Shown in pieces: positions 3,187 through 60,300 of a stretch of DNA of 64,000 nucleotides. The position numbers were made by a program, and so were the translations under genes. Under the pieces are notes generated by a model. That model did no database searches, was not told the DNA's origin, and worked only from the letters and a program-made list of their open reading frames with translations. Each line of letters begins with the position of its first letter. Position 1 is the stretch's first letter. The DNA is from Patescibacteria group bacterium (GTDB lineage Bacteria > Patescibacteriota > Patescibacteriia > JAXHNJ01), in contig JAXHNJ010000001.1 of the NCBI GenBank assembly GCA_034520665.1, forward strand, positions 194,579-258,578. The letters are read 5' to 3'.

Positions 3187-6100
3187 TTATTTTATACTGA
3201 TATCCTGTCTTTTTCTAAGCCGGTAAATTTGCATACCGCCAGCAGCCGTAAATAAGGTTAATAAGATATAGATGAAATTATAGAGATTCATACCCGCTTC
3301 AGCTAAGCCCAGCACCACGCCTTTCCTGACTTCTAGGGGAGCCGTGTCTGAAATATCTTTATGATTAACAGCAGTAACCACGGCTAAGTTGTCATAAGTG
3401 TTAGCCTGAACGTCAGCTCCTACCTTGACTTCATAATTAATCACTATTTCACTACCCGGAGCCATGTTGCCTAAGGTCCAAATTCTGACCGCGCTGTCAT
3501 CATAAGTAAAAGTAAAGCCTGCTGGTAATGTGTCAGTTAAAACTACGTCATAAGCTGTGGCTTCGCCAGTGTTAGTGACAGTAACTGTGTAATTAACCAG
3601 AGAATTAGGATTAACAAATTCCTGGTCAACTTCTTTTTCAATATTCAGAACCGGTTTGGCTTCTTCGCTTAAAACAGCTGGTATTCTAACCTCAAGAGTA
3701 ACGGAATCGTCAATTTTTTCATGGTTGTCAGCCCAGGTTTCAGCCAGGTTATCATAGAAGCCAGCTTCAACCTTGCCAACTGCTACTTGATAGTTCAAAT
3801 TAAAGTTCTCGCCCGGTGTTAAATCGCCAAGTTCCCAAGTGTGTGTGGCCAGGCCAGTGCTGACAAAAGTAAAGCCGTCCGGAAGAGTGTCTTCAAGTAT
3901 AACGTTATAAGCGGTTTCATTACCAGTATTTGAGATATTAACTGTGTAAGTAGCCACATTGCCCGGATTGGCAAAAGTTAAGTCAACTGATTTTTCTATA
4001 CCAAGGATTGGGCCAGACACAATAGTGGTCTCTTCATCAGCTGTGGTTTCATCAGTTTCATCAGAGTCGAGCACGGCTGTGTTATTAATCACAGTATTAT
4101 TGACTAAGCCTTCATTAGCAGTAACCGTAATGTCAAGCGTGCCCGTATCACCTGGGTTTTTAGTATCCAAGTTCCAACTGACTGTATGATTAGCTTGGTC
4201 ATAAGTATAAGTCTCAGAAGCGGAGACAAAGCTGACTTCGCTAGGCAGGTTATCTACTAAAGTTAAATTATTAACGGAATCATTACCGCCAACAGACCAA
4301 GTTAGGGTATAGGTAAAGTCTTTACCCGGAGCCACTGGGTCTTTACTGTCAATTTTATCTAGACCAATTTCGTAGATCAATTTTTGGTTACCAAAGTTAT
4401 TATTTCTACTAACTATACCAGAGGCAATAGTAATAGCAGCCGGAGCCATAGTTTGTCTCCAACCTTCTTGCGTGGTTTCAGTTAAATTATATTGACCGGC
4501 TTCCAGGTCAGTAAATTCATAATAGCCGTTTTCATTTGTAGTAGTACAAGTATTTTCATCCAAACAAATTTCCCAGCCCTGGAGAGCCTCTTCACCTTCA
4601 TCCCACTCAGAATTATTATTAACATCTTCAAATTTATAACCAGAAATTAGTCCCAATTTAAAGTTACCGAAGATAACTTCATGGGGTTGGCCGGATTTAA
4701 CCTCAACCTCATATTCAGTGCCGGTTATGGCCATAAAATCACTGTTTAGAATTTCTTTAACTGTATAAGTGCCTGGTTCAAGATTAGTCCAAGTATAGGA
4801 GCCATCGGCGCCAGTTACTTGATTATCACCAACTTGAACTTCACCTTGCCAGAGCTGAACAGTCCAGCCGGGTTTAGGAGTTCGATCATTATCTGTTTTC
4901 CATGATCCATCGGCATCAATATATTTGTAAGCAGTTATGCTGGCGTTTTCAAAGTTACCAAAGTCAAAATCACCATCTTTTACATCTACTCCAGAAACAG
5001 CTTCAAAGTTATAACTACCTGTCAAAGGGTAGGTTTGGGTCCAGCCTTCTTTAGTTTCTTCGGTTATATTATAACTACCTGGACCAATATCGATATAAGT
5101 AACACAACCGTTTTCATTGGTCGTTTTTTCTTGTTCATTAAGATAAACATTCCAGCCTTGATTGTAGACTGAATCATTTTCTATATTACCGTCACCGTTT
5201 TTATCAATATATTTACAGACGGTGACATCTATGTTTTGGAAATTACCAAAGTCATTACCAGTACTTTTATCATTGATGCCTAAAGTAATAACACTCGGAG
5301 CTAAAGTCTGAGTCCAGCCGGGTTTAAGGGTCTCTTCTAAGATATAACTGCCGGCGGATAGGTTATCAAATTCATAATAGCCATTAGCGTTAGTAGTGGT
5401 AGTGTCTAAAACCGGATTTTCTGTAGGCATATTCTCAGGAGTATTTTGATAGACCTTTTCAAAACATTTAGTGTCATAATTATCTAAATTACCATCACCA
5501 TTTAAATCAACTTTCTGGCTAGCAAAGGCGCCAAAGTCTGAAAGACCAATTTTATTATCCTTACTATAGTCATCGCCTGCTAAATTATAATCATCAAAGT
5601 TTTCTGAACAAGCAGAATATAATTTAATTTCCCAATCATCTAAAGCCGGTTCATCATTATCCCAAACATGGTTACCATTAATATCTTCGAATTTATAGCC
5701 GGTGATTTTACTGGCGTTGGCTGTGTTGGTAATGGTGCAGGTAACATCATCATCTTTTTCCAGGGTAATTTCATTGCCTTCTAAAGTTTTATTATTACAA
5801 ATCCATTTAGAGGCGGTATAACCTTCAATTTCACTTGATTCAGAAAGGGTATAAGTGCCGGTTAGAACCTCACCATGAGCCAAGCCATTTCCTTCAATTG
5901 TGGAAAGATCTTCACTGGTGGCTTTAAGTTTCCAGTCAATAGCTTGGGCCGTGCCGCCATTAGAATTATCTACTTGTTTAATTAAAGTTAAGTCGGCTGT
6001 GTTGCGGGCATTGCAAAGGGTGATTTCAATCCCGTCAGTGGTCACACCCAGTTTAGCTGGCAGTGTTCTGTACTCAGTAGTTTCACAGGTATAAATAGAG

Positions 6101-15512: not shown

Positions 15513-16199
15513 ATGAAAACAAAAAAAACTCATATTATTTCACTCGGTGGTTCAATAATTGTGCCGGATAAAATCAATATCACTTTTCTTAAAAAATTCA
15601 GGAAAATGATTTTATCTTTAGTCAAAAAAGGCCATCGATTTGTTATTGTTACGGGAGGAGGGAATACCGGAAGAGTTTATAATCAGGCGGCTAAAAAAAT
15701 TGCTAAAATTAAAGATATTGACCTTGATTGGCTGGGTATCGCGGCTACTAAAATGAACGCGGAATTTATTCGGGTTATTTTTTCGGACTCTGCTTTTAAA
15801 AAAGTTATTACTAATCCAACTAAAAAAGTAAAAACAAATAAGAAAATTATTATTGGCTCTGGCTGGCGCCCGGGCTGCTCTTCGGATAAAGACACGGTTT
15901 TATTGGCCAAGCAGTTTAAAGCCAAAACTGTGATCAATCTTTTTGATAAAGATTATGTTTATGATAAAGATCCGGATAAATATAAAACAGCCCGCCCCCT
16001 CAAAGAAATTTCCTGGTCTGATTATTTAAAGATTATCGGCACTCAGTGGTCACCGCGTCTTTCCACACCCTTTGACCCGGAAGCTTCTAAGTTGGCTAAA
16101 AAGCATAAAATAAAAGTAATTATTATCAAAGGGACTAATTTAAAAAATTTGAAAAATTATTTATCCGGTAAAAAATATAAAGGAACGATCATTAAATAA
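15513..16199 (+). CDS. amino-acid-kinase-family protein, probable archaeal-type UMP kinase (PyrH-like)
   Basis: 228 aa. ISLGGSII (glycine-rich N-terminus) and VIVTGGGNTGRVY motif of the aspartokinase/UMP-kinase fold. Length matches archaeal-type UMPK. Confidence 0.5.
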   Translation: MKTKKTHIISLGGSIIVPDKINITFLKKFRKMILSLVKKGHRFVIVTGGGNTGRVYNQAAKKIAKIKDIDLDWLGIAATKMNAEFIRVIFSDSAFKKVITNPTKKVKTNKKIIIGSGWRPGCSSDKDTVLLAKQFKAKTVINLFDKDYVYDKDPDKYKTARPLKEISWSDYLKIIGTQWSPRLSTPFDPEASKLAKKHKIKVIIIKGTNLKNLKNYLSGKKYKGTIIK

Positions 16200-16477
16200 T
16201 GATAAAATTTCTTCATATAATAAATATTGTTTTATTTCTGGTTAGTATAATTATTCCGCCGCTTGATATAGCTTGTCCGGCCAGAAAAGCAGTAAACATA
16301 ACTATGTTTTGTTTATTGGCGGTAGTTTTATTGGTAGATTTGTTTTTTATATTTTACTTTAATAAAAAAGAAAAAACCACTCATAAAAATTTAAGATATT
16401 TATTTATTTTTTACTTTTGTTTAATACTGGTTTTTGGCTCAATATTTTTTCTCTGGAGTCTTAGTTTAGTCTGTTAA
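16199..16477 (+). CDS. small membrane protein (3 TM), unknown function
   Basis: 92 aa, hydrophobic. Start overlaps the stop of the upstream gene. Confidence 0.35.
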   Translation: MIKFLHIINIVLFLVSIIIPPLDIACPARKAVNITMFCLLAVVLLVDLFFIFYFNKKEKTTHKNLRYLFIFYFCLILVFGSIFFLWSLSLVC

Positions 16478-16501
16478 ATTTAATTAACTAAATACAAATT
16501 T

Positions 16502-17308
16502 ATGGAAAACATTAAAACTCAGAGCGAGGCCTTAATTGACGACGGCCAAAGACGGAAGTTTAAAAATCTAAGAATTTTTAACTTAGTCATGTTCTTTTTT
16601 CACGCGGTTCAAGGGGTTTTAATGCTGATTTTATCTTCTGATTTTGCTTTACCAGTAACTTCCAGTTTTGTGGAAATGAATCAAGCCACTAGTAAACTGG
16701 CCCCTGTTTTAAAGACCGAATTTACTTTAGAAATTGGGCCACTGGTGGCTGGATTTTTGTTTTTGTCAGCTCTGGCTCATTTATTAGTATCCACGGTTTT
16801 TTATAAGTGGTATGTTAGAAATTTAAAGAAGGGGATAAATCCGGCCCGTTGGATTGAGTATTCTTTTTCAGCGTCTTTAATGATTGTGGTTATTTCTATG
16901 TTAGTTGGTATTTATGATGGTGTGGCTTTAATTTTAATTTTCTTTTTGAACGTTATGATGATTCTTTTTGGCTGGGTCATGGAAGTGCATAATCAAACCA
17001 CAAAAAAAACCAATTGGCTTTCTTATATCTTTGGCTGTCTAGCCGGCGCTATTCCCTGGATAGCTATAGCCATTTATTTATTCAGTGCCGGCGAAGGGGA
17101 TAACAAGGCGCCGACTTTTGTCTACTGGATTTTCTTTTCTATCTTTATTTTCTTTAATATTTTTGCCATTAATATGATTTTACAGTACAAAAAAACTGGT
17201 AAATGGAGAGATTATCTTTTTGGCGAGAAAGTTTATATTATTTTAAGCCTGGTGGCCAAGACACTTTTAGCCTGGCAGGTTTTTGCTGGTACTTTAAGGC
17301 CAGTGTAG
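16502..17308 (+). CDS. heliorhodopsin (7-TM retinal protein)
   Basis: 268 aa, 7 TM. Segments closely match the heliorhodopsin 48C12 sequence as I recall it: RWIEYSFSASLMIV, MILFGW, GCLAGAIPWIAIAIYLF, ILSLVAKTLLAWQVFAGTLRPV (Schiff-base Lys in SLVAK on TM7). Confidence 0.8.
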   Translation: MENIKTQSEALIDDGQRRKFKNLRIFNLVMFFFHAVQGVLMLILSSDFALPVTSSFVEMNQATSKLAPVLKTEFTLEIGPLVAGFLFLSALAHLLVSTVFYKWYVRNLKKGINPARWIEYSFSASLMIVVISMLVGIYDGVALILIFFLNVMMILFGWVMEVHNQTTKKTNWLSYIFGCLAGAIPWIAIAIYLFSAGEGDNKAPTFVYWIFFSIFIFFNIFAINMILQYKKTGKWRDYLFGEKVYIILSLVAKTLLAWQVFAGTLRPV

Positions 17309-17432
17309 GGAATGTAGAAGTCGTTGAAGGCGTTGAAGGTGTTCAAAGCGTCTTTAGGTTTTAATTTTGACTAGTCTCTAAGCGACTTTAACAAGCAAAA
17401 TCAATTTAACAATTTTATCCATTAAACATTCT

Positions 17433-17765
17433 ATGCGTATCTGGGATATTGACCCAAAATATTTATGCCGCCAGCATTTGCTGGGCGAGCACCGGGAGCT
17501 TCATGCTATTTGGACTATTTTGACTAAAAATAAAAAAGGCTATTCTCATCATCCGGAAACCTTAAGATGGCGAGGCAAACTCAAGGCGTTGTTTAATCGC
17601 CACGAAAAAATATTAAAAGAAATGAAAAAAAGAGGCTACCAGGAAGCCTCGCCCTTGAATAAAAAATTAGCTAAGGGTAAGACCCGGCAGGATGTTTTTA
17701 TAAATACTAAAAAGGAACAAAAAGAAATTTTAAAGAAAAAGAAATGCGGGTGTTTTAGTAATTAA
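17433..17765 (+). CDS. pyrimidine-dimer DNA glycosylase (T4 endonuclease V / DenV family)
   Basis: 110 aa. LCRQHLLGEHRELHAIW aligns with T4 DenV LADQHLMAEYRELPRVF. C-terminal ...KILKEMKKRGY aligns with DenV ...IAECLKRGF. Confidence 0.6.
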   Translation: MRIWDIDPKYLCRQHLLGEHRELHAIWTILTKNKKGYSHHPETLRWRGKLKALFNRHEKILKEMKKRGYQEASPLNKKLAKGKTRQDVFINTKKEQKEILKKKKCGCFSN

Positions 17766-17853
17766 TTTTTTTGACAGAGATAAAAATTTATGTTAATAAA
17801 TTATCATAGATAGTTTTATTTAATTTGTTCATTTTATTTAAGGAGGTAGCTTC

Positions 17854-18216
17854 ATGCATTGTTTAATTTGTGGAAAAGATTTTTCTGGTAAAACAGAGGA
17901 TATTACAATTATTTCTCATAGAAAAATAAAGTATGCCGTATGTAATAAATGTTACGGTACTTGTGTATCTTGTGGTAAGAAATTTGAACCGGGAAGGGCT
18001 GGCATAACTAGATTAGTCTGCCCTGAATGCCGGAAAGCTCTGAATAGAAAAAATAGAGAGGAAAAATTTAATACTCATTTTTTGGATATGCCGGGTAAAA
18101 GAGCAGATTGGGTCTCTGACGATACATTTAACGAAATAAATAGGAGAAATTTTAAAAGCCGTATTGCGGATTTATTGGGTTGTGAGGATCATAATGAAGA
18201 AAGTTTTTCTTTGTAA
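17854..18216 (+). CDS. zinc-ribbon protein with multiple CxxC pairs, unknown function
   Basis: Strong RBS aaggagg. CxxC at 3, 30, 36-39, 56-59. Confidence 0.45.
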   Translation: MHCLICGKDFSGKTEDITIISHRKIKYAVCNKCYGTCVSCGKKFEPGRAGITRLVCPECRKALNRKNREEKFNTHFLDMPGKRADWVSDDTFNEINRRNFKSRIADLLGCEDHNEESFSL

Positions 18217-18283
18217 AAGTATTAAAAAATTATGAGGGAATCTTAAAGGTTCCCTCCTTTTTATTATATCTTCTTGACATCTA

Positions 18284-18471
18284 AATTCAATCTGCTATAC
18301 TAAGGATAACCTAAAATATTTGCCACAGATCGTCGGTGTCGCTTCAGTTGAGCTAAGCTCGACAAGCGCGACTCAATATCCGGCCGAGGTAAACAAAAAA
18401 TGAGGGGAAATCCTTGTTTGTCGTGTAAAAATGGTCTGTGGTAACACAGATCTATTTTTAATCTTAAAAAT
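18284..18471 (+). promoter_or_regulatory. rplJ promoter (TTGACA-16-TATACT) and structured L10-leader-like 5'UTR
   Basis: -35 TTGACA 18284-18289, -10 TATACT 18306-18311. The roughly 155-nt UTR has complementary segments ccacagatc / gatctgtgg and lies immediately upstream of rplJ, as the autoregulatory L10 leader does in many bacteria. Confidence 0.4.
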
Positions 18472-42061: not shown

Positions 42062-43210
42062 ATGAAAAATGCTAAAATTGGCCAAAATATAGAACAAAAA
42101 AAGGGCTTTAAAGCTTTTACTCCCAATCCTTTTCCACCAAAGGAAGGTTTTAGTTTTGAGCCAAAAATCTTGAAAAAGAACAATGAAGCCACTAGATTAC
42201 TCGGCAAGCTTGATGGTATTACTAAATTATTGTCTGATTCGGATTTTTTTCTTCTGATGTATTTGCGAAAAGATGCAGCTTCTTCAAGTCAAATCGAGGG
42301 AACTATGGCAACAATGATTGATGCCATTGAGGCGGAAGTAAAAATAAATACAAATATACCTGAAGATGTTGATGATATTTTGCATTATATCAAAGCTCTT
42401 AATTATGGGTTGAAGCGGGTAACAACGGATAATTTTCCTATGGCGCTTAGATTTATCCGTGAATTGCATAAACAGTTGATGCACAAAGCTCGGGCAAATC
42501 ATTTTTCTGATCCCGGCGAATTTCGCAAAAGTCAAAATTGGATTGGTGGCACAAGGCCGGATAATGCCAGATTTGTTCCTCCGGCTGTTCATGATATGCA
42601 TAATGCACTTAGCGATTTAGAAAAATTTATACATTCAGATGACTCTGTTCCGACTATAATCAAAGCCGGATTAATTCACGCTCAATTCGAAACAATTCAC
42701 CCATTTTTAGATGGAAACGGAAGAACAGGAAGAATGTTAATCACTTTTTATTTGTGGAAAGAAGGTTATTTAGAAAAACCAATTTTGTTTTTATCGTCTT
42801 TTTTTAAAAAACACCAAAAACTGTATTACGAAAAACTATTCGGTTATCACCATGGCAAGGTAAACGATTGGATTGATTTTTTCCTGGATGGCGTTATTGA
42901 AATAGCCCATGAAGCTATTGATATAGTAGACAAAATTACTATTCTGAGACAAAAAGATTTGATGAAAATTCAGAAACTTGGAAAGCGCGCCTCCGAAAGT
43001 GCGACAATTGTCTTGTCTGAACTTTACGAACAACCAATTGTAAATGTTAAAGTTATCCAAAATTGGACGGGTTTTACCCGCGCCGGTGCGCAAACAGTTA
43101 TTGATAGATTTATTAAAATGGGAATTTTATCACCAAAAGACAAAGACAAAAAATATGGACAATCCTATATTTATAAAGATTACGTTGAACTTTTTAACAA
43201 CAGAAATTAA
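42062..43210 (+). CDS. Fic-family protein (AMPylation/filamentation domain)
   Basis: HPFLDGNGRTGRML matches the Fic core motif HPFx(D/E)GNGR. Confidence 0.85.
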   Translation: MKNAKIGQNIEQKKGFKAFTPNPFPPKEGFSFEPKILKKNNEATRLLGKLDGITKLLSDSDFFLLMYLRKDAASSSQIEGTMATMIDAIEAEVKINTNIPEDVDDILHYIKALNYGLKRVTTDNFPMALRFIRELHKQLMHKARANHFSDPGEFRKSQNWIGGTRPDNARFVPPAVHDMHNALSDLEKFIHSDDSVPTIIKAGLIHAQFETIHPFLDGNGRTGRMLITFYLWKEGYLEKPILFLSSFFKKHQKLYYEKLFGYHHGKVNDWIDFFLDGVIEIAHEAIDIVDKITILRQKDLMKIQKLGKRASESATIVLSELYEQPIVNVKVIQNWTGFTRAGAQTVIDRFIKMGILSPKDKDKKYGQSYIYKDYVELFNNRN

Positions 43211-47158: not shown

Positions 47159-48814
47159 ATGAAACTGGAGACAAGACCGGCCATTGACGGAATTATGGAT
47201 TCGTTTATTGAGATTCTTCGGCTAGCAGCGCCTAAGGATTTAAAAATTGTGGCTATTACCTTGCGGGTTTTTGACTCTGAATACAATAATTTAGCGCTTT
47301 TTGGCAAAACTGGTTTAAAGCATCCACAAAAAAGAAGAAGGGTAGTGCCTCTGAAAGGAACAGTATCCGGTCATCTTTATCAAGTTGGCGGATGCGAGTG
47401 TGTCAGTGTCGAAGATAAAGACTGGTTTAACCATCATGACCGTCAGTTAGCCAAAGAAGAAGGCTATGGCTATATGTTAGCTATGGAGCTTTCCCATTTA
47501 GGGCGCAGTATTGGCACAGTCCAGGTTTACACGGTTAATAATCCGAGGTCATACCCAGAAGAAAAGATAGGCCAGTTAATGAATTTGGTGAAAGAGATAT
47601 CTTCCAAGTTTGTTATTAGCTATTTTGAAGATGAACTATTGATAAAAATCCAGGAAGAATTAACCGGGACCAATCCACGAGGCAGTTTTTATCACATCTG
47701 CGCTATTATGGCTGAGCTTTTTAACAGTCAGGGTGTGGTCATTTACTACCGTTCGGGAAAAAACGAGGTTAAGCTTATTGCTGGTTATGCCGGAAAAAAC
47801 ATTCCTGAACATGGCATTGGAGAAAGATTTAGAATTAGTACCGATGCTAATGATAATCTAGGGTACCTTAATGAGGTATTGAAAAGTAAGAAGACAATGG
47901 TTTTTCAGGGTACTGATGAAAGACTGAAAACAATAAATGAAATTATGTATTTTCAGCATACCCAGTCAATCTTAGTGGCTCCAATTATTGTAGAATCTTT
48001 TATTCAAGGTTTTATGGTGATCAACCAGAGCCTAAATCGACCGCCTTTTGATGAAAAAGAAATGAAACTGATCGATCGCATCGCTCTGAAAGTATCACAA
48101 TCGTTGAGTATGATCAGGCTGCAAAAAGAAAACGCGGCCTGTCAGGCGGCTAATGTTAGCTCGTCATTACTGGCTGAAATAAGGCATAATCTGCTTAACC
48201 CTTTAATTCCGATTTTCAATCAGACTAAGAGTCTACTTGATTCAGAAAGATTACCGGACGATTTAAGGCAATGCGCCGAGGGTATTTTACAGGAGGCCAA
48301 AAATTTGGATAAACGACTACGAGACTTGGAAGATCTATATTGTAATGACAACCGAGTGGCTATGAGTTGGATTAATTTAGTTTCCTTGCTAGAGAAAAAA
48401 GTAGAATCATGGAGAACCATATGTGAAGAAAGGGGCTTTCAATTATTTTTTGACAAAAGGGTAAAAAATATCCTTCGCAACGCTAATAGTCAATTACTGG
48501 AAATTGCTCTGGAGAATCTTTTTAATAATGCTATTGAAGCCACTTCTCAAAAAGGCAGCCGGATAGAGGTTACCATAAGAAGATCAAAAAGGTATAATCC
48601 GGTAATTACCATGACTAACCCGGGTGAAATTCCGGTTGATAAGATGCCGAAAATTTTTCAGCGTGGCTTTAGCACAAAAGATGAAGGCAGTGGCCAGGGT
48701 CTGACTATTGCTAAAAAATACGTAGCTATGCACGGCGGAGAAATTGCTTGTGAATCTAGCCATGGCAAAACCACTTTCCTAATAGTTCTTTTTGGTCATC
48801 AGCAAAAAAATTAA
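47159..48814 (+). CDS. cytoplasmic sensor histidine kinase with GAF-like domains (orphan; no adjacent response regulator)
   Basis: 551 aa, no TM. H-box ...AEIRHNLLNPL. HATPase_c G-boxes GEIPVDKMPKIFQRGFST and GSGQGLTIAKKYVAMHGGEI. Confidence 0.7.
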   Translation: MKLETRPAIDGIMDSFIEILRLAAPKDLKIVAITLRVFDSEYNNLALFGKTGLKHPQKRRRVVPLKGTVSGHLYQVGGCECVSVEDKDWFNHHDRQLAKEEGYGYMLAMELSHLGRSIGTVQVYTVNNPRSYPEEKIGQLMNLVKEISSKFVISYFEDELLIKIQEELTGTNPRGSFYHICAIMAELFNSQGVVIYYRSGKNEVKLIAGYAGKNIPEHGIGERFRISTDANDNLGYLNEVLKSKKTMVFQGTDERLKTINEIMYFQHTQSILVAPIIVESFIQGFMVINQSLNRPPFDEKEMKLIDRIALKVSQSLSMIRLQKENAACQAANVSSSLLAEIRHNLLNPLIPIFNQTKSLLDSERLPDDLRQCAEGILQEAKNLDKRLRDLEDLYCNDNRVAMSWINLVSLLEKKVESWRTICEERGFQLFFDKRVKNILRNANSQLLEIALENLFNNAIEATSQKGSRIEVTIRRSKRYNPVITMTNPGEIPVDKMPKIFQRGFSTKDEGSGQGLTIAKKYVAMHGGEIACESSHGKTTFLIVLFGHQQKN

Positions 48815-55313: not shown

Positions 55314-57587
55314 ATGTGCGGAATAGGAGCAATTTATGGAAAGAACATAAAAGAAAAAGAGTTTTCCATAAAGCGAAGTCTACAATTAATAGAACATCGA
55401 GGATATAGTTTATATGAAACTAAGATTTTAGATAATTGTGTTCTCGGCTGTAACAGATTAGAAATTGTGGATAGACCAAAAGCCATACAACCTCAGACAA
55501 ATGAAGATGAATCTGTTTTTGTTGTATTCAATGGAGAGATTTTCAATTATAAAGAATTAATGAAAGAACTTTCTGATAAAGGGCACAAATTCAAAACAAA
55601 TTCAGACACAGAAGTTTTAGTTCATCTTTGGGAAGAATATGGCGAGGAAATGGTTAAAAAATTAGATTCTGAAATGTTTGCCTTTTTTATTTATGATAAA
55701 AACAAAAATTCTTTTTTTGTAGCAAGAGACCCTTACGGAATAAAACCCTTGTATTATGCTCTTGATAATTTAGGAAATTATCATTTTGCCTCTGAAATTA
55801 AGCAACTATCTCAATTTAAAGAAATTGATGAGATTTCTTTTTTTCCACAAGGAAATTTTATGTTAAACGGCAAATTAAAACAATATCATAAAATTCCAAA
55901 GGTAACTGAAAAACTGAAAGCTCCTTTACAAGAAATAATTGAAAATGTAAGAATCTTATTTGATGAAGCAGTCAAAAAAAGAGTTGATACAGATTTGCCT
56001 GTTGGAGTCTTTTTTAGCGGAGGAATAGATAGTTCAGCTGTATTAGCGACAGCAGTAAAATATCATAAAGATGTTACTGCAATAATTGTTGGTCATCCTC
56101 ACGCCCCAGATGTTTTAATTGCAAAAAAATACTGCGAAGAAAACAAGATAAAATATATTTATTTTAATCCTCCAACGGAAAAAGAACTTTTTAAAATCAT
56201 TCCCGAAATTGTTTACATAACTGAAAGTTTTGAGCCTAATATGATTAGGCAGTCGGCAGTTTCTTACTATATTTCTAAAATCGCAAAAGAAAATGCATTC
56301 AAGGTTATTTTATGCGGAGAAGGTCCAGATGAAATTTTTGCCGGTTATCCTGAATTTAGAAACTGCAAAACTGAAAAAGAAATCTCAAATAAAATAAACG
56401 ACTTTATTCTAAATCTTCCAAGAACACAATTTCAGAGAGTAGATAGAACCTCAATGAATTTTACTCTTGAAGTTAGAGTCCCATTTTTTGATACAAAATT
56501 TGCAGATTATTCAATTAAAATTCCGAGTAAATACAAAATAAAATCTAAGAGAAAAGAAAAAATTACAAAATGGATTTTAAGGGAAGCAATGAAAGACAGA
56601 TTACCTGATTACATTGTAAATAGACCCAAAGTCGTTTTAAGCGAGGGAGCTGGATTTAAAGGAAATCAGTTAATCGGAGGGTTATTCTACGATATTGTTA
56701 AAAATAATATTACTGAAGAAGAATTTAAGAGGATAAAAAAAGATTATACCGATTGGAACATCACTAATAAAGAAGTTGCTCATTATTTCAAAATTTATGC
56801 AAAACATTTATTCACGAAGGCAATATTCAATAAAAAAAGACCCTTAGTAAACGCAATAGATTCTATAAAAAATGAAAAATCAGAATTTTTAACTGAAAAA
56901 ATTCTGGACACAATTCATTCAAAGGGATTTTTCAAAGATTCCCCTTACAAAGAAGATGAACTAAAAAAAGTTATTCTTGACTCTGTAAGAAACAGCAAAG
57001 AAATTAAGATAGTTGGGTATTGGGGAATTGAAAAAGAAAAACTAGATAAATCCGAAGAAACAGCTTTCAATTTTCTAAAGGATTTAGAAAAAAAAATTAA
57101 GAAATCTTACAAAAAAGTAAAAATAACCTTAATTTTGACTGATATCCATGGAGAATTAAATTCAATTGACAGCAAAATAATAAACAGCTATTTTTCAAAG
57201 GTTATTTCTCTATCCAAAAAATACAAATTTCAAACTATATTTCTAAGTGACCTCTGGAAAAGAAACAATTTGGATTTAACAAAAGTAAAAAGTGAATTAG
57301 AAAAAAAGCCAAAAATCTGGTGGCAAAAATTTTCAACAAAAAATCAATTATTAGAGTCTTCTAAAAAACACCATAAAGGAAAAGATATTGAAATCGGGGC
57401 AAAAATGTATGCTCTTGCTTCAAAGTATGATTCTGAGTTTGTAGAAAAAGAATTTAATGATTCTATATTTTTCACTTATAATTCTAAATCTTGGCAAAAT
57501 ACCTTGCCTGACATGCCTACAATTTATTTATATGGATTAGGAAAAAATAAGAGTATAAAACCTTGGCATTTGAAATATTCTTTTTAG
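55314..57587 (+). CDS. asparagine-synthetase-B-like amidotransferase with ~250-aa C-terminal extension
   Basis: N-terminal MCGIGAIYG (Ntn Cys of class-II GATase). FFSGGIDSSAVLA PP-loop. An extra C-terminal domain of unknown function. Confidence 0.65.
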   Translation: MCGIGAIYGKNIKEKEFSIKRSLQLIEHRGYSLYETKILDNCVLGCNRLEIVDRPKAIQPQTNEDESVFVVFNGEIFNYKELMKELSDKGHKFKTNSDTEVLVHLWEEYGEEMVKKLDSEMFAFFIYDKNKNSFFVARDPYGIKPLYYALDNLGNYHFASEIKQLSQFKEIDEISFFPQGNFMLNGKLKQYHKIPKVTEKLKAPLQEIIENVRILFDEAVKKRVDTDLPVGVFFSGGIDSSAVLATAVKYHKDVTAIIVGHPHAPDVLIAKKYCEENKIKYIYFNPPTEKELFKIIPEIVYITESFEPNMIRQSAVSYYISKIAKENAFKVILCGEGPDEIFAGYPEFRNCKTEKEISNKINDFILNLPRTQFQRVDRTSMNFTLEVRVPFFDTKFADYSIKIPSKYKIKSKRKEKITKWILREAMKDRLPDYIVNRPKVVLSEGAGFKGNQLIGGLFYDIVKNNITEEEFKRIKKDYTDWNITNKEVAHYFKIYAKHLFTKAIFNKKRPLVNAIDSIKNEKSEFLTEKILDTIHSKGFFKDSPYKEDELKKVILDSVRNSKEIKIVGYWGIEKEKLDKSEETAFNFLKDLEKKIKKSYKKVKITLILTDIHGELNSIDSKIINSYFSKVISLSKKYKFQTIFLSDLWKRNNLDLTKVKSELEKKPKIWWQKFSTKNQLLESSKKHHKGKDIEIGAKMYALASKYDSEFVEKEFNDSIFFTYNSKSWQNTLPDMPTIYLYGLGKNKSIKPWHLKYSF

Positions 57588-57785
57588 AAAAAAACAAAAA
57601 AAGTGCACGTCTTTCTAATATCTAGCTCTCCATATAAAAAAATAGCTAACAAGATATTAAAAGAATTAAAAGATGATGGAAATGGATGACGATTTTCAGG
57701 ATTTTTTGAGAAAAGGGGAGTGAGGTAATTTATTTTTTTATATCTTGACAGGTTATTTCAGTTATGATACAATTATGTCATATAT

Positions 57786-58421
57786 ATGAAATACAAGTCA
57801 AAAACTAATTTGCTTGAAGAGTTAAAATCTTTACCTTATTTTACTAAAGAACGTATTTATCAATTAGGTAAAAACGATAAGATTTATAATTTAAAAAATA
57901 GCACTTTAGATACCTATATAAGCCGATATTTAAAAAATAGAGAAATTATTGCCTTAAAAAGAGGTATGTATATATCTAATAATTTTTACCATAAAAATAG
58001 TGATGATCTTTCTTATATATACTTTTTAGCAAATATTATCAGAAAACCTTCATACATTAGTTCGTGGACGGCTCTAGAGTATTATGGTTTATCTACAGAA
58101 GTAATAAATAGTACTATTTCAGTAACAACAAAGGTAACTAGAAATTATGAAACTAAAATTGGAAATTTTACCTATAAATCTATAAAAAATGATTTATTTA
58201 CCAATTTTTCCTTAATAAATAAAAAATTTAATTTTTATATTGCCCCACCCTCAAAAGCACTTTTTGACATGCTATATTTTAAAACACGTCAATATAAAGA
58301 CGTAAAATATCATGATATAGATCTATTGATTAAAGAGTTACGTGTTGATATTAAGTCAATGGATAAAAAAGAGGTAAAAAAATTTAATTTAATGATAAAA
58401 GATTACTATGATTATGGATAA
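57786..58421 (+). CDS. AbiEi-like antitoxin / transcriptional regulator (type IV TA)
   Basis: N-terminal wHTH with ...YISRYLKNREIIALKRGMYIS (AbiEi-type LxxxGxLxRLxRGxY). Overlaps the downstream gene by 14 bp. Confidence 0.5.
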   Translation: MKYKSKTNLLEELKSLPYFTKERIYQLGKNDKIYNLKNSTLDTYISRYLKNREIIALKRGMYISNNFYHKNSDDLSYIYFLANIIRKPSYISSWTALEYYGLSTEVINSTISVTTKVTRNYETKIGNFTYKSIKNDLFTNFSLINKKFNFYIAPPSKALFDMLYFKTRQYKDVKYHDIDLLIKELRVDIKSMDKKEVKKFNLMIKDYYDYG

Positions 58422-59706
58422 TCAAATTATTTTATTAATTAAAAAAAAGCTACGAGAAATACCTGTTACTAGTGGACCGGTAGCTTTAATAAAAAGAAAT
58501 TCCGCTAAGGAGCAATTACAATATTATGTTTTAAACTTTATTTATAATAATTCTAAATATAATAAGTGGATTATGTATGGTGGATCAGCTCTTCGTATTT
58601 GTCACAAATTAAATAGAATGTCAGTAGACTTAGATTTTGAAGTTAATCATAAAATTACTAATAAATTTTTAGGTGATTTTGAAAGTAAGATAGTTTCTTA
58701 TTTTAAAAATGATTATAATGTTGATTCAGGAATACTTACTACTAGTATTAATAATAAAAGAGGTATTACATTAAAGTTTAAAATTGGAGATAAGATTGGA
58801 TTGAATTTTGCTTCAAAGATTGTAAAAGTTAAGATTGACTTGAATTATTTTAAAGTTCCTGAAACTGTCGTGGTAGAAAATCATCCTATTAATGAAGATC
58901 AATTTTCTTTTATTATCAGAACATACAACATGTCTGCCTTAATGTCCAGTAAAATAGCGGCTATTTTTTTACGTGGTAAACGTGGAGTGGGAAAAGAAAT
59001 TTATAAAGAAAAAGGCAGGGACATTTATGATTTATTGTGGTATATGTCAAAAAAAACTATTCCCGATTTGGATTATTTAAATGCCAAGAAAATTAATTTT
59101 AATAATCCAAAAGATCTTTTTGATAAGTTAACTGTTAAGATATTAAATAATAAAAAAACAGATAAAAATCTTAAACAAGATTTACCGCCTCTTTTTTTAG
59201 ATCAAGCATATATAAATAACTGGATTAATAATTGGCGAGATAGCTACTTATATTTATTAAAAGAATATAAATTTTCAAGTGTGAAAGATTTAAAAAAAAT
59301 AGAAGTAATTCAAGATTTTTCTACGGGTATATATTCATTTGTATATTTTTATAACAGTAAGGAAAGTACTCTAATAAGAATAATATTTAATATTAGTGAA
59401 TATTGGATTGATTTTAAAGAGGGAAATTTATCCATTGAAATTAGTAAAAATGTTAAAGACCATTTTGATTTTAAAACTAGAGTAATTACTAATCGCCCCT
59501 CATCTAAAAAGAAATTGATGCAATATGCTGAATTATTTCTTCGAAAAACTGAAAAATATTTCAAAAAGTCTAACAATATAATTATGAACAACACTATTTC
59601 TACTAAGGTTATTCGCATGACATCTGATAATTTAAAATTAGAAAAAGAAATTCTGTTAAATAAAGAGACTCTTATTAAATGTGAATTAGAAGACTTATTG
59701 CCGTAA
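58408..59706 (+). CDS. AbiEii/AbiGii-family nucleotidyltransferase toxin
   Basis: KWIMYGGSALRICHKLNRMSVDLDFEV matches the GG(T/S)AL...R.S.DlDf nucleotidyltransferase signature of AbiEii. Confidence 0.6.
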   Translation: MIMDNQIILLIKKKLREIPVTSGPVALIKRNSAKEQLQYYVLNFIYNNSKYNKWIMYGGSALRICHKLNRMSVDLDFEVNHKITNKFLGDFESKIVSYFKNDYNVDSGILTTSINNKRGITLKFKIGDKIGLNFASKIVKVKIDLNYFKVPETVVVENHPINEDQFSFIIRTYNMSALMSSKIAAIFLRGKRGVGKEIYKEKGRDIYDLLWYMSKKTIPDLDYLNAKKINFNNPKDLFDKLTVKILNNKKTDKNLKQDLPPLFLDQAYINNWINNWRDSYLYLLKEYKFSSVKDLKKIEVIQDFSTGIYSFVYFYNSKESTLIRIIFNISEYWIDFKEGNLSIEISKNVKDHFDFKTRVITNRPSSKKKLMQYAELFLRKTEKYFKKSNNIIMNNTISTKVIRMTSDNLKLEKEILLNKETLIKCELEDLLP

Positions 59707-59745
59707 AATCTTTAGAAATAGAAATTAATAATTTGTTAAAATAAC

Positions 59746-60300
59746 ATGAAAGCTTTAATCTTGCCTGGTAATAACAATACTTTAATCACCAACAATTGGT
59801 ATCTTTTTGTTAAAGAAAAATTAGAAAAACTGGGTCTAGAAATCACAGCCAAAAATATGCCGGATCCGAAATAGCCCACCGAAAAATTTGGTTGCTCTTT
59901 ATAAAAAAGAGACTTGAGGGAGACGAAAATTCCATTTTAATTGACCACTCCACTGGAGCGGTAGCCACTTTGCGTTATCTTGAAAAAAATAAATGCCGTT
60001 TGGTAATATTAGTATCTTGTTATTATACTGATCTTGATGATAAAATGAAAAAAAAGTGGTTATTTTGATGATCCTTGGTTATGGAAGAAAATAAAAAATA
60101 ATGCTGGGAAAATAGTTATTTTTACCTCAAGGGATGACCCTTATATTCCTATTGACCAACCGCGTTTAATTAAAGAAAAAGTTGAGGCCGAGTATCGTGA
60201 ATACAAAGATGAAAAACTTTTTGGTATGAATAGGAAAAAAGAATTTCCTGAAATTATAACGGTTGTTAAAAAAATGATAGAAAATCATAAAGAAAAATAA
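59746..60300 (+). pseudogene. frameshifted remnant of an alpha/beta serine hydrolase (YdeN/RBBP9-like)
   Basis: MKALILPGNNNTLITNNWYLFVKEKLEKLGLEITAKNMPDPK* is followed in other frames by ...LIDHSTGAVATLRYLEKNKCRLVILVS... and ...GKIVIFTSRDDPYIPIDQPRLIKEKVEAEYREYKDEKLF.... At least two frameshifts. No ORF of 60 aa or more survives. Confidence 0.55.

Follow-up and report, generated by a model that had tools for sequence, protein, structure and literature searches.

A 64-kb stretch of a Patescibacteria genome (contig JAXHNJ010000001.1; "the window" below means this whole stretch of 64,000 nucleotides) carries a heliorhodopsin (HeR) gene followed on the same strand by a gene for a short Pyr_excise protein (PE), a predicted DNA glycosylase resembling T4 endonuclease V (endoV). 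Among related HeR loci this adjacency recurs more often than expected by chance, yet it is rare and unstable, and the sequences at hand thus point to a weakly recurrent association. Our preferred explanation, to which we give a probability of roughly 0.5, is that the two genes form a facultative co-expression pair that joins a light sensor to a glycosylase acting on photodamage.

The first gene can be identified unambiguously from its sequence as a complete heliorhodopsin, as had been claimed in an earlier reading made from the DNA letters and open reading frames (ORFs) of the window (hereafter the sequence-only reading). Its product matches the Pfam Heliorhodopsin model PF18761 from end to end (E-value 3.4e-103; 344.6 bits against a cut-off of 26.7) as well as the NCBIfam model NF038020 (350.9 bits against a cut-off of 100), and it aligns over almost its full length with the solved Thermoplasmatales HeR structure 6is6 (E-value 2.6e-87). 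In this alignment His34, His93, Glu119, Ser249 and Lys253 all fall on their 6is6 equivalents. The motifs quoted in the sequence-only reading are likewise present: RWIEYSFSASLMIV contains the counterion Glu119 of helix 3, and SLVAK contains Ser249 and the Schiff-base Lys253 of the SxxxK motif in helix 7. The protein would accordingly be expected to show the inverted topology, retinal binding and slow photocycle of heliorhodopsins.

The second gene begins 124 nt behind the HeR stop codon on the same strand, as first noted, and the T4 endoV likeness of its 110-residue product, on which the sequence-only reading had staked its proposal, stands. PE matches the Pfam Pyr_excise model PF03013 with an E-value of 1.9e-29 (102.3 bits against a cut-off of 23); its score with NCBIfam TIGR02328 (32.5 bits) lies far under the cut-off of 121.15. 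An AlphaFold2 model built on 36 homologs (mean pLDDT 90.3, pTM 0.82) retrieves T4 endoV (2END) as its best match in the Protein Data Bank (PDB) with Foldseek (query-normalized TM-score 0.71, probability 1.00), the next match outside endoV reaching a TM-score of 0.41. Alignment with hhalign, for which the T4 endoV sequence was confirmed against the PDB, links the two proteins at an E-value of 3.4e-4, sets LCRQHLLGEHRELHAIW of PE against T4 endoV residues 12-28 and gives a register that pairs M1-R2 with T2-R3, R21 with Arg22 and E22 with the catalytic Glu23. A single-sequence search of the PDB with PE did not recover T4 endoV, and a profile of the narrow PE family finds it at an E-value of 0.2 only; interleukin-4 structures that ranked above it in these searches are spurious. 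Because the Pfam model, the AlphaFold2/Foldseek match and the hhalign register agree, we regard the membership of PE in PF03013 and its predicted T4 endoV fold as real.

The residues M1, R2, R21 and E22 are invariant in the short PE family, as are C12, C105 and C107, and the histidines at positions 15, 20, 24, 40 and 57 are also invariant across phyla. Met1 would be retained in the mature protein since the next residue is an arginine. The hhalign alignment stops at T4 residue 86, and the C-terminus of PE, which ends in the invariant CxC formed by C105 and C107, differs from that of T4 endoV. This conservation suggests that the invariant cysteines and histidines likely make up a candidate metal- or redox-active site missing from T4 endoV. 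A glycosylase/apurinic-apyrimidinic (AP) lyase specific for cyclobutane pyrimidine dimers (CPDs) is a candidate activity of the subfamily, on which our literature searches found no experimental work.

Recurrence of the adjacency

We collected 80 HeR loci from species-representative genomes, with 52-77% identity to the window HeR, and 80 from metagenomes, which upon deduplication gave 127 distinct HeR loci from Patescibacteria-type genomes (the window and 126 others, designated here by L numbers). PE was sought within 6 kb of HeR by six-frame tblastn and by a hidden Markov model (HMM) made from 120 PE homologs. The simple gene caller that we used is weak in GC-rich loci (it overlooked PE in L005 and L008), and the PE counts come from the six-frame HMM search. 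Five of the 126 other loci (L005, L007, L008, L015 and L039), each representing another species-level genome, have PE within this 6-kb range, and the adjacency is thus not a peculiarity of the genome in which it was noticed. In four of these five, PE is downstream of HeR on the same strand. It is the immediately following gene in three, namely L039, with a 0-nt spacer, L007, with a spacer of ~12 nt and a GTG start, and L008, with a spacer of ~83 nt; the fourth, L005, has the order HeR-DUF378-PE on a single strand. The spacers of 0-12 nt make co-transcription of the pair likely in L039 and L007. In L015, PE is encoded on the opposite strand 1.2 kb upstream of HeR, with MsrA, hemerythrin and Fpg genes in the same stretch.

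The window, having prompted the question, was left out of the test against chance. On the assumption of independent loci, single-copy PE and genomes of 600-1200 genes, PE as the immediate downstream gene in 3 of 115 loci compares with at most ~0.13 expected (P ~3e-4), and the ~0.93 Mb of sampled flanking DNA, which hold five PEs, would be expected to hold 1.2-1.6 at most with one PE in every genome. Given that PE is within 6 kb at all, its immediately downstream position in four of six cases, the window now included, has a P of ~6e-4.

The six PE-linked loci differ widely in GC content (32-60%), and an all-against-all comparison found no genes common to them beyond HeR and PE, save two isolated matches at non-corresponding positions. 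Conserved synteny as the source of the recurrence is thus ruled out. Descent from a single co-inherited pair is also unsupported: the PE-linked HeRs are dispersed in a neighbor-joining tree, each beside a PE-less sister, and the PE identities (52-67% among the linked PEs versus up to 69-83% to unlinked database homologs) do not follow the HeR identities. An ancient linkage followed by many losses may still be hidden behind such crude trees of short proteins. The pair has, as far as these comparisons reach, either been kept amid reshuffled surroundings or formed more than once, and there would therefore be some advantage of linkage or a common tendency of the two genes to occupy flexible regions. 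A search for HeR residues peculiar to the PE-linked loci yielded a few positions that are consistent with clade membership (n=6, underpowered).

The locus and the wider contexts of the two families

The window is of low GC content (about 25-41% in 2-kb windows), and its features are collected in Table 1. A scan for promoter-like and terminator-like sites on the + strand found neither from HeR through PE to the following zinc-ribbon ORF, and no terminator-like site in the interval between PE and that ORF (17765-17854). As the scan shows no terminator-like site between these genes and a strong terminator-like hairpin directly before the promoter-like site and L10 leader of rplJ, HeR, PE and the zinc-ribbon ORF probably constitute one transcription unit that would be closed by this hairpin, directly after which the rplJ-rplL operon begins on the same strand. 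The zinc-ribbon ORF would probably be the last gene of the unit, and HeR and PE would be co-transcribed in the window.

Table 1. Coordinates of features in the window
Feature	Position	Strand	Particulars and basis
pyrH	15513-16199	+	ORF list, Pfam
92-aa hydrophobic (membrane) ORF	16199-16477	+	ATG overlaps the pyrH stop (TAATG); sub-threshold Pfam and NCBIfam matches only
Heliorhodopsin (HeR)	16502-17308	+	268 aa; Pfam, NCBIfam, PDB 6is6
HeR-PE spacer	17309-17432	+	124 nt; promoter/terminator scan, RNA fold
Pyr_excise gene (PE), T4-endonuclease-V-like DNA glycosylase	17433-17765	+	110 aa; Pfam, fold, hhalign
Zinc-ribbon ORF	17854-18216	+	120 aa; four CxxC pairs (double zinc ribbon); strong ribosome-binding site AAGGAGG
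Terminator-like hairpin	18234-18256	+	10 pairs, then T-run; promoter/terminator scan
Promoter-like site before rplJ	18274-18301		11/12 matches; scan
L10 leader upstream of rplJ	18305-18467		Rfam L10_leader, 42.1 bits, slightly below the gathering score (44), E-value 1.4e-4
Fic/DOC gene	42062-43210		
GAF histidine kinase gene	47159-48814		
Low-GC stretch	56000-60000		25-27% GC, lowest in the window
AbiEii-type toxin gene	58408-59706		within the low-GC stretch

The zinc-ribbon ORF has a weak match to Zn_ribbon_8 in Pfam (E-value 9e-4, below the cut-off) and no homolog in any fetched HeR locus. For the 92-aa ORF, tblastn found no match among the fetched HeR loci outside the window's own contig, and both its status as a gene and its membership in the unit are uncertain. 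With no homologs in any locus, these two flanking ORFs are ruled out as parts of a conserved module. The element that the sequence-only reading had drawn from 16199 to 17765 is thus borne out for HeR and PE; its start at 16199 takes in the 92-aa ORF, which lacks a counterpart in HeR loci. Pfam recognized housekeeping genes among the 49 window ORFs that we scanned, including the dcw cluster, ribosomal proteins and methyltransferases. No photolyase, blh or crt gene is among these ORFs, and the source of retinal, about which the sequence-only reading had asked, stands as a question as far as these 64 kb go. The window further encodes a GAF histidine kinase, a Fic/DOC protein and an AbiEii-type toxin, the last within the lowest-GC stretch of the window, which is possibly a small mobile or defense island.

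Across the clade, the commonest families immediately downstream of HeR are PMT_2 (5 loci), MFS_1 (4), Response_reg (3) and Pyr_excise (3, or 4 with L008). Pyr_excise is the only one of these that is not typically present in multiple copies per genome. When the view is widened to 6 kb from HeR, ABC ATPases recur in 20 loci, MsrA and MacB/FtsX in 8 each, and response regulators and PE in 6 each. MsrA (PF01625; L015, L030, L040, L071, L075, L076, L078 and L081) is as frequent as any single-function neighbor of HeR, and its recurrence is in keeping with the role in oxidative stress already proposed for HeR (PMC8612252, PMC9166423). An unannotated family of ~249 residues, without a Pfam match, also lies near HeR in eight loci (L005, L006, L007, L009, L011, L020, L093 and L123; for example L009:7429-8178), two of which are PE-linked. 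In the PE-linked locus L087 (4206-5057 and 8100-8963), a CarH-like MerR/B12-binding regulator, a candidate light-dependent transcription factor, is encoded ~1 kb upstream of HeR, and an AP_endonuc_2 gene is found downstream. A small DUF378 (PF04070) membrane protein adjoins HeR in two PE-linked loci (L087:5692-5901 and L089:5729-5956); its gene precedes HeR in one of them and separates HeR from PE in the second. We found no HeR on viral contigs.

The short PE family itself is large, with 4,933 matches in our homology search, and homologs with 64-84% identity to PE are scattered over many phyla, among them Endomicrobia, Nitrospirae, Omnitrophica, Ignavibacteria, Verrucomicrobia and Methanosarcina. 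Two related contexts in Endomicrobia-type anaerobes place PE inside an oxidative-stress operon (L171:1-10336, L172 and L176-L178; PE at 5001-5336 in both L171 and L176) together with genes for flavodiiron/ODP, desulfoferrodoxin, VIT1, thioredoxin reductase, thioredoxin, ferritin and rubrerythrin, the start of the thioredoxin reductase gene overlapping the PE stop codon. These neighbors suggest that PE may act there on oxidative rather than ultraviolet (UV) DNA damage. In a Paceibacterota genome, PE comes directly after a TspO/MBR gene, the two being 1 nt apart (L174:4616-5333, L175:2026-2821). TspO is a porphyrin-binding membrane protein, and in this second instance, too, PE follows a membrane protein that binds a chromophore; another Patescibacteria PE locus has no functional theme. 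Homologs with 37-65% identity are also present on 11 IMG/VR viral contigs (L180-L190; 5-275 kb, GC 35-68%), none of which bears a HeR; by this evidence, phages or prophages are further carriers of the short PE family.

Weighing the explanations

In the facultative pair that we favor, HeR would be a retinal-binding light sensor without enzymatic output of its own, and the 110-residue PE would be a glycosylase/AP-lyase of the T4 endoV type that starts base-excision repair of light-made lesions without itself needing light. The lesions would be CPDs and/or ring-opened formamidopyrimidine (Fapy) purines that arise from photo-oxidative stress. The link would most likely lie in joint expression and joint selection: a cell that retains a light sensor would be one that meets light, and having a gene for photodamage repair in the same transcription unit would supply both products together. 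This explanation builds on the identity of the two genes, their conserved residues, their same-strand arrangement and their recurrence in unrelated contexts, all of which are direct observations; co-transcription in the window, the substrate of PE and any benefit of the linkage are inferences. It also agrees with other HeR neighbors in the clade that repair damage, such as MsrA (8/127 loci) and, in L015, Fpg with hemerythrin.

Several observations weigh against such coupling. PE is missing from about 95% of the sampled HeR loci, and six-frame tblastn and HMM searches found none in any of the 80 metagenome loci. The nearest HeR relatives with readable context lack it (L179, 83% identity; L002 and L003, 77%), and for the closest relative of PE itself (L170, 84%), the 170 bp of upstream sequence that could be read contain no HeR end. 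In calling the pair a module, the sequence-only reading therefore overstated its constancy. No partner dominates the neighborhood of HeR in general, each flanking position being occupied by more than 100 Pfam families. Within the window, the spacer between the two genes folds as an imperfect, bulged hairpin followed by a U-rich run, with an unexceptional energy (z -0.84); it is a candidate weak terminator that could stop transcription before PE. The assumptions of the chance test, above all the independence of the loci, likewise belong on this side of the balance. Finally, PE homologs are abundant in anaerobes, many of their source organisms not being sunlit, and several metagenome-assembled genomes (MAGs) with close HeR relatives (for example the PE-linked L015 and L023, L030, L032 and L047) bear groundwater-style labels (GW1, NC_groundwater) in their record titles, which would place HeR and PE in putatively dark habitats. 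The labels and the abundance in anaerobes weaken a strictly UV reading. Of the UV-damage link put forward in the sequence-only reading, the dimer-glycosylase family and fold hold, and the specificity for UV lesions is uncertain in view of these labels and the anaerobe oxidative-stress operons.

The variability of the surroundings could also mean that HeR and PE are small, horizontally mobile accessory genes that tend to settle in the same flexible regions and so become neighbors in excess of a uniform-genome null, with no functional coupling. The wholly different flanks of the PE-linked loci agree with such coincidental co-location, as do the extreme variability of HeR neighborhoods in the clade, the unpaired nearest relatives of both proteins, a PE phylogeny that does not track that of HeR and the 11 viral contigs with PE homologs. 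We nonetheless consider it doubtful, though a serious possibility, since four of the five extra cases have HeR then PE on the same strand, three of them with spacers of 0-83 nt, which resembles integration into an operon, and since the immediately downstream position in four of six cases is hard to obtain by chance (P ~6e-4, as above). Moreover, published work independently connects HeR with two further enzymes of UV repair (PMC9769723, PMC8612252). A tighter coupling than the one we favor would be direct light-gated repair, in which the cytoplasmic loops of HeR bind PE and, in the light-activated O state, raise its activity or hold it at the membrane. HeRs have been reported to control photolyase, glutamine synthetase and an ABC transporter by contact in an analogous way (PMC9769723; PMC11109279), and HeR and PE abut in L039 and L007 (0-12 nt). 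We nevertheless hold this speculative reading to be very unlikely: most HeRs of the clade have no PE nearby, the PE-linked HeRs have no residue signature beyond clade membership (n=6, underpowered), and there is no sign of co-adaptation, because the PE-linked PEs form no separate subfamily.

The substrate of PE raises a different alternative, namely that the short PE acts chiefly on oxidative damage, possibly with a metal or redox dependence that resides in its invariant cysteines and histidines, and that its link to HeR passes through photo-oxidative stress and not through dimers. Genomic context speaks for this in the Endomicrobia-type operon, in the TspO-PE pair of Paceibacterota, in the PE-linked locus L015 with its MsrA, hemerythrin and Fpg genes, and in the recurrence of MsrA beside HeR. 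So do the residues, as C12, C105, C107 and several histidines are invariant in the family and the cysteines are not found in T4 endoV. In addition, the related cv-pdg excises FapyAde and FapyGua (bioRxiv 10.1101/185058), and an oxidative-stress role has been proposed for HeR (PMC8612252, PMC9166423). Against it, the contexts amount to two or three independent ones, with another Patescibacteria PE locus being without a theme, and the residues common to PE and T4 endoV fit CPD cleavage equally well. We judge it unlikely; it overlaps with the facultative pair, which leaves the substrate open. The boldest proposal would make HeR a general light-dependent regulator of DNA repair that binds and activates PE in some Patescibacteria, with the short PE as a widespread metal-containing glycosylase for photo-oxidative lesions, and we hold this to be the least probable of all. 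Our estimates for these readings overlap in part and are not meant to sum to one.

Comparison with known systems

The few established cases of HeR function all concern operon partners that are bound and regulated, namely glutamine synthetase, photolyase and an ABC transporter (PMC9769723; PMC11109279). HeR controls such soluble or membrane partners from the same operon by protein contact, for which charged residues of its cytoplasmic loops are essential (PMC9769723; PMC11109279). HeR has further been proposed to help monoderms and bacteria of the candidate phyla radiation (CPR) against light-induced oxidative stress (PMC8612252, PMC9166423). Ten groups of HeR operon partners have been listed, including "photolyase", and Pyr_excise is not among them (PMC11109279). 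A T4 endoV-fold glycosylase would be a repair partner distinct from photolyase, as the sequence-only reading had foreseen. Full-text literature searches combining heliorhodopsin with glycosylase or pyrimidine dimer turned up no account of the HeR-PE pairing.

The TfHeR/TfPHR pair of Trichococcus flocculiformis resembles the window in having HeR beside a same-strand gene for a UV-dimer enzyme, in an arrangement that recurs in several genomes: HeR-photolyase operons occur in 12 genera, and TfHeR binds photolyase and stimulates it about three-fold (PMC9769723). There, however, the partner is a flavin photolyase, whereas the window encodes a predicted glycosylase with the T4 endoV fold that would carry out base excision without light. 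The T. flocculiformis host is a Firmicute for which binding and stimulation have been measured, whereas the host of the window is a Patescibacteria MAG. At about 3-5% of the loci in its clade, the HeR-PE pairing is also far less common than the HeR-photolyase pairing. A second parallel is offered by the Znf-HeRs of Thermoplasmatales, which belong to the same broad subfamily as the window HeR (6is6, E-value 2.6e-87) and likewise have a light-independent UV-damage enzyme nearby; photolyase, UvdE and carotenoid genes lie on both their flanks or nearby, and they bear a fused N-terminal zinc ribbon (PMC8612252). The zinc ribbon of the window is, in contrast, encoded by a separate 120-aa ORF that is not conserved in other HeR loci and whose relation to the fused domain is only putative. 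UvdE differs from PE in being an endonuclease and in its fold, and carotenoid and photolyase genes, found beside the Thermoplasmatales HeRs, do not occur among the window ORFs scanned.

On the enzyme side, PE shares its Pfam family and fold with T4 endoV (DenV, 2END) and with the Chlorella virus enzyme cv-pdg, the latter excising not only dimers but also FapyAde and FapyGua (bioRxiv 10.1101/185058). The equivalents of the T4 N-terminal amine, Arg3, Arg22 and Glu23 are kept in PE. Nevertheless, PE has 110 residues against 138 in T4 endoV, is only ~20% identical to it, replaces Arg26 with an alanine (Ala25 of PE) and lacks the basic/aromatic C-terminal segment, in place of which it has the CxC; Cys12, Cys105 and Cys107 have no T4 endoV counterpart. 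The PE subfamily is, moreover, spread through anaerobes and archaea. It is very widely distributed and strongly conserved across phyla, and its oxidative-stress operon context in anaerobes hints at a repair activity yet to be described.

Should the HeR-PE association be functional, photolyase, UvdE and Pyr_excise would be three non-homologous UV-lesion enzymes recruited beside HeR in different lineages, and the case for a role of HeR in the photodamage response would be strengthened. Light control of PE, if true, would place a nominally light-independent base-excision enzyme under the command of light. At 110 residues, PE would also be a small, soluble and easily expressed partner for in vitro tests of HeR signaling. 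HeR next to photolyase or UvdE has already been published, and PE would thus be a third, non-homologous and previously unreported repair partner. Taken together, these comparisons place the HeR-PE pair as a new partner within a known theme and not as a new kind of system.

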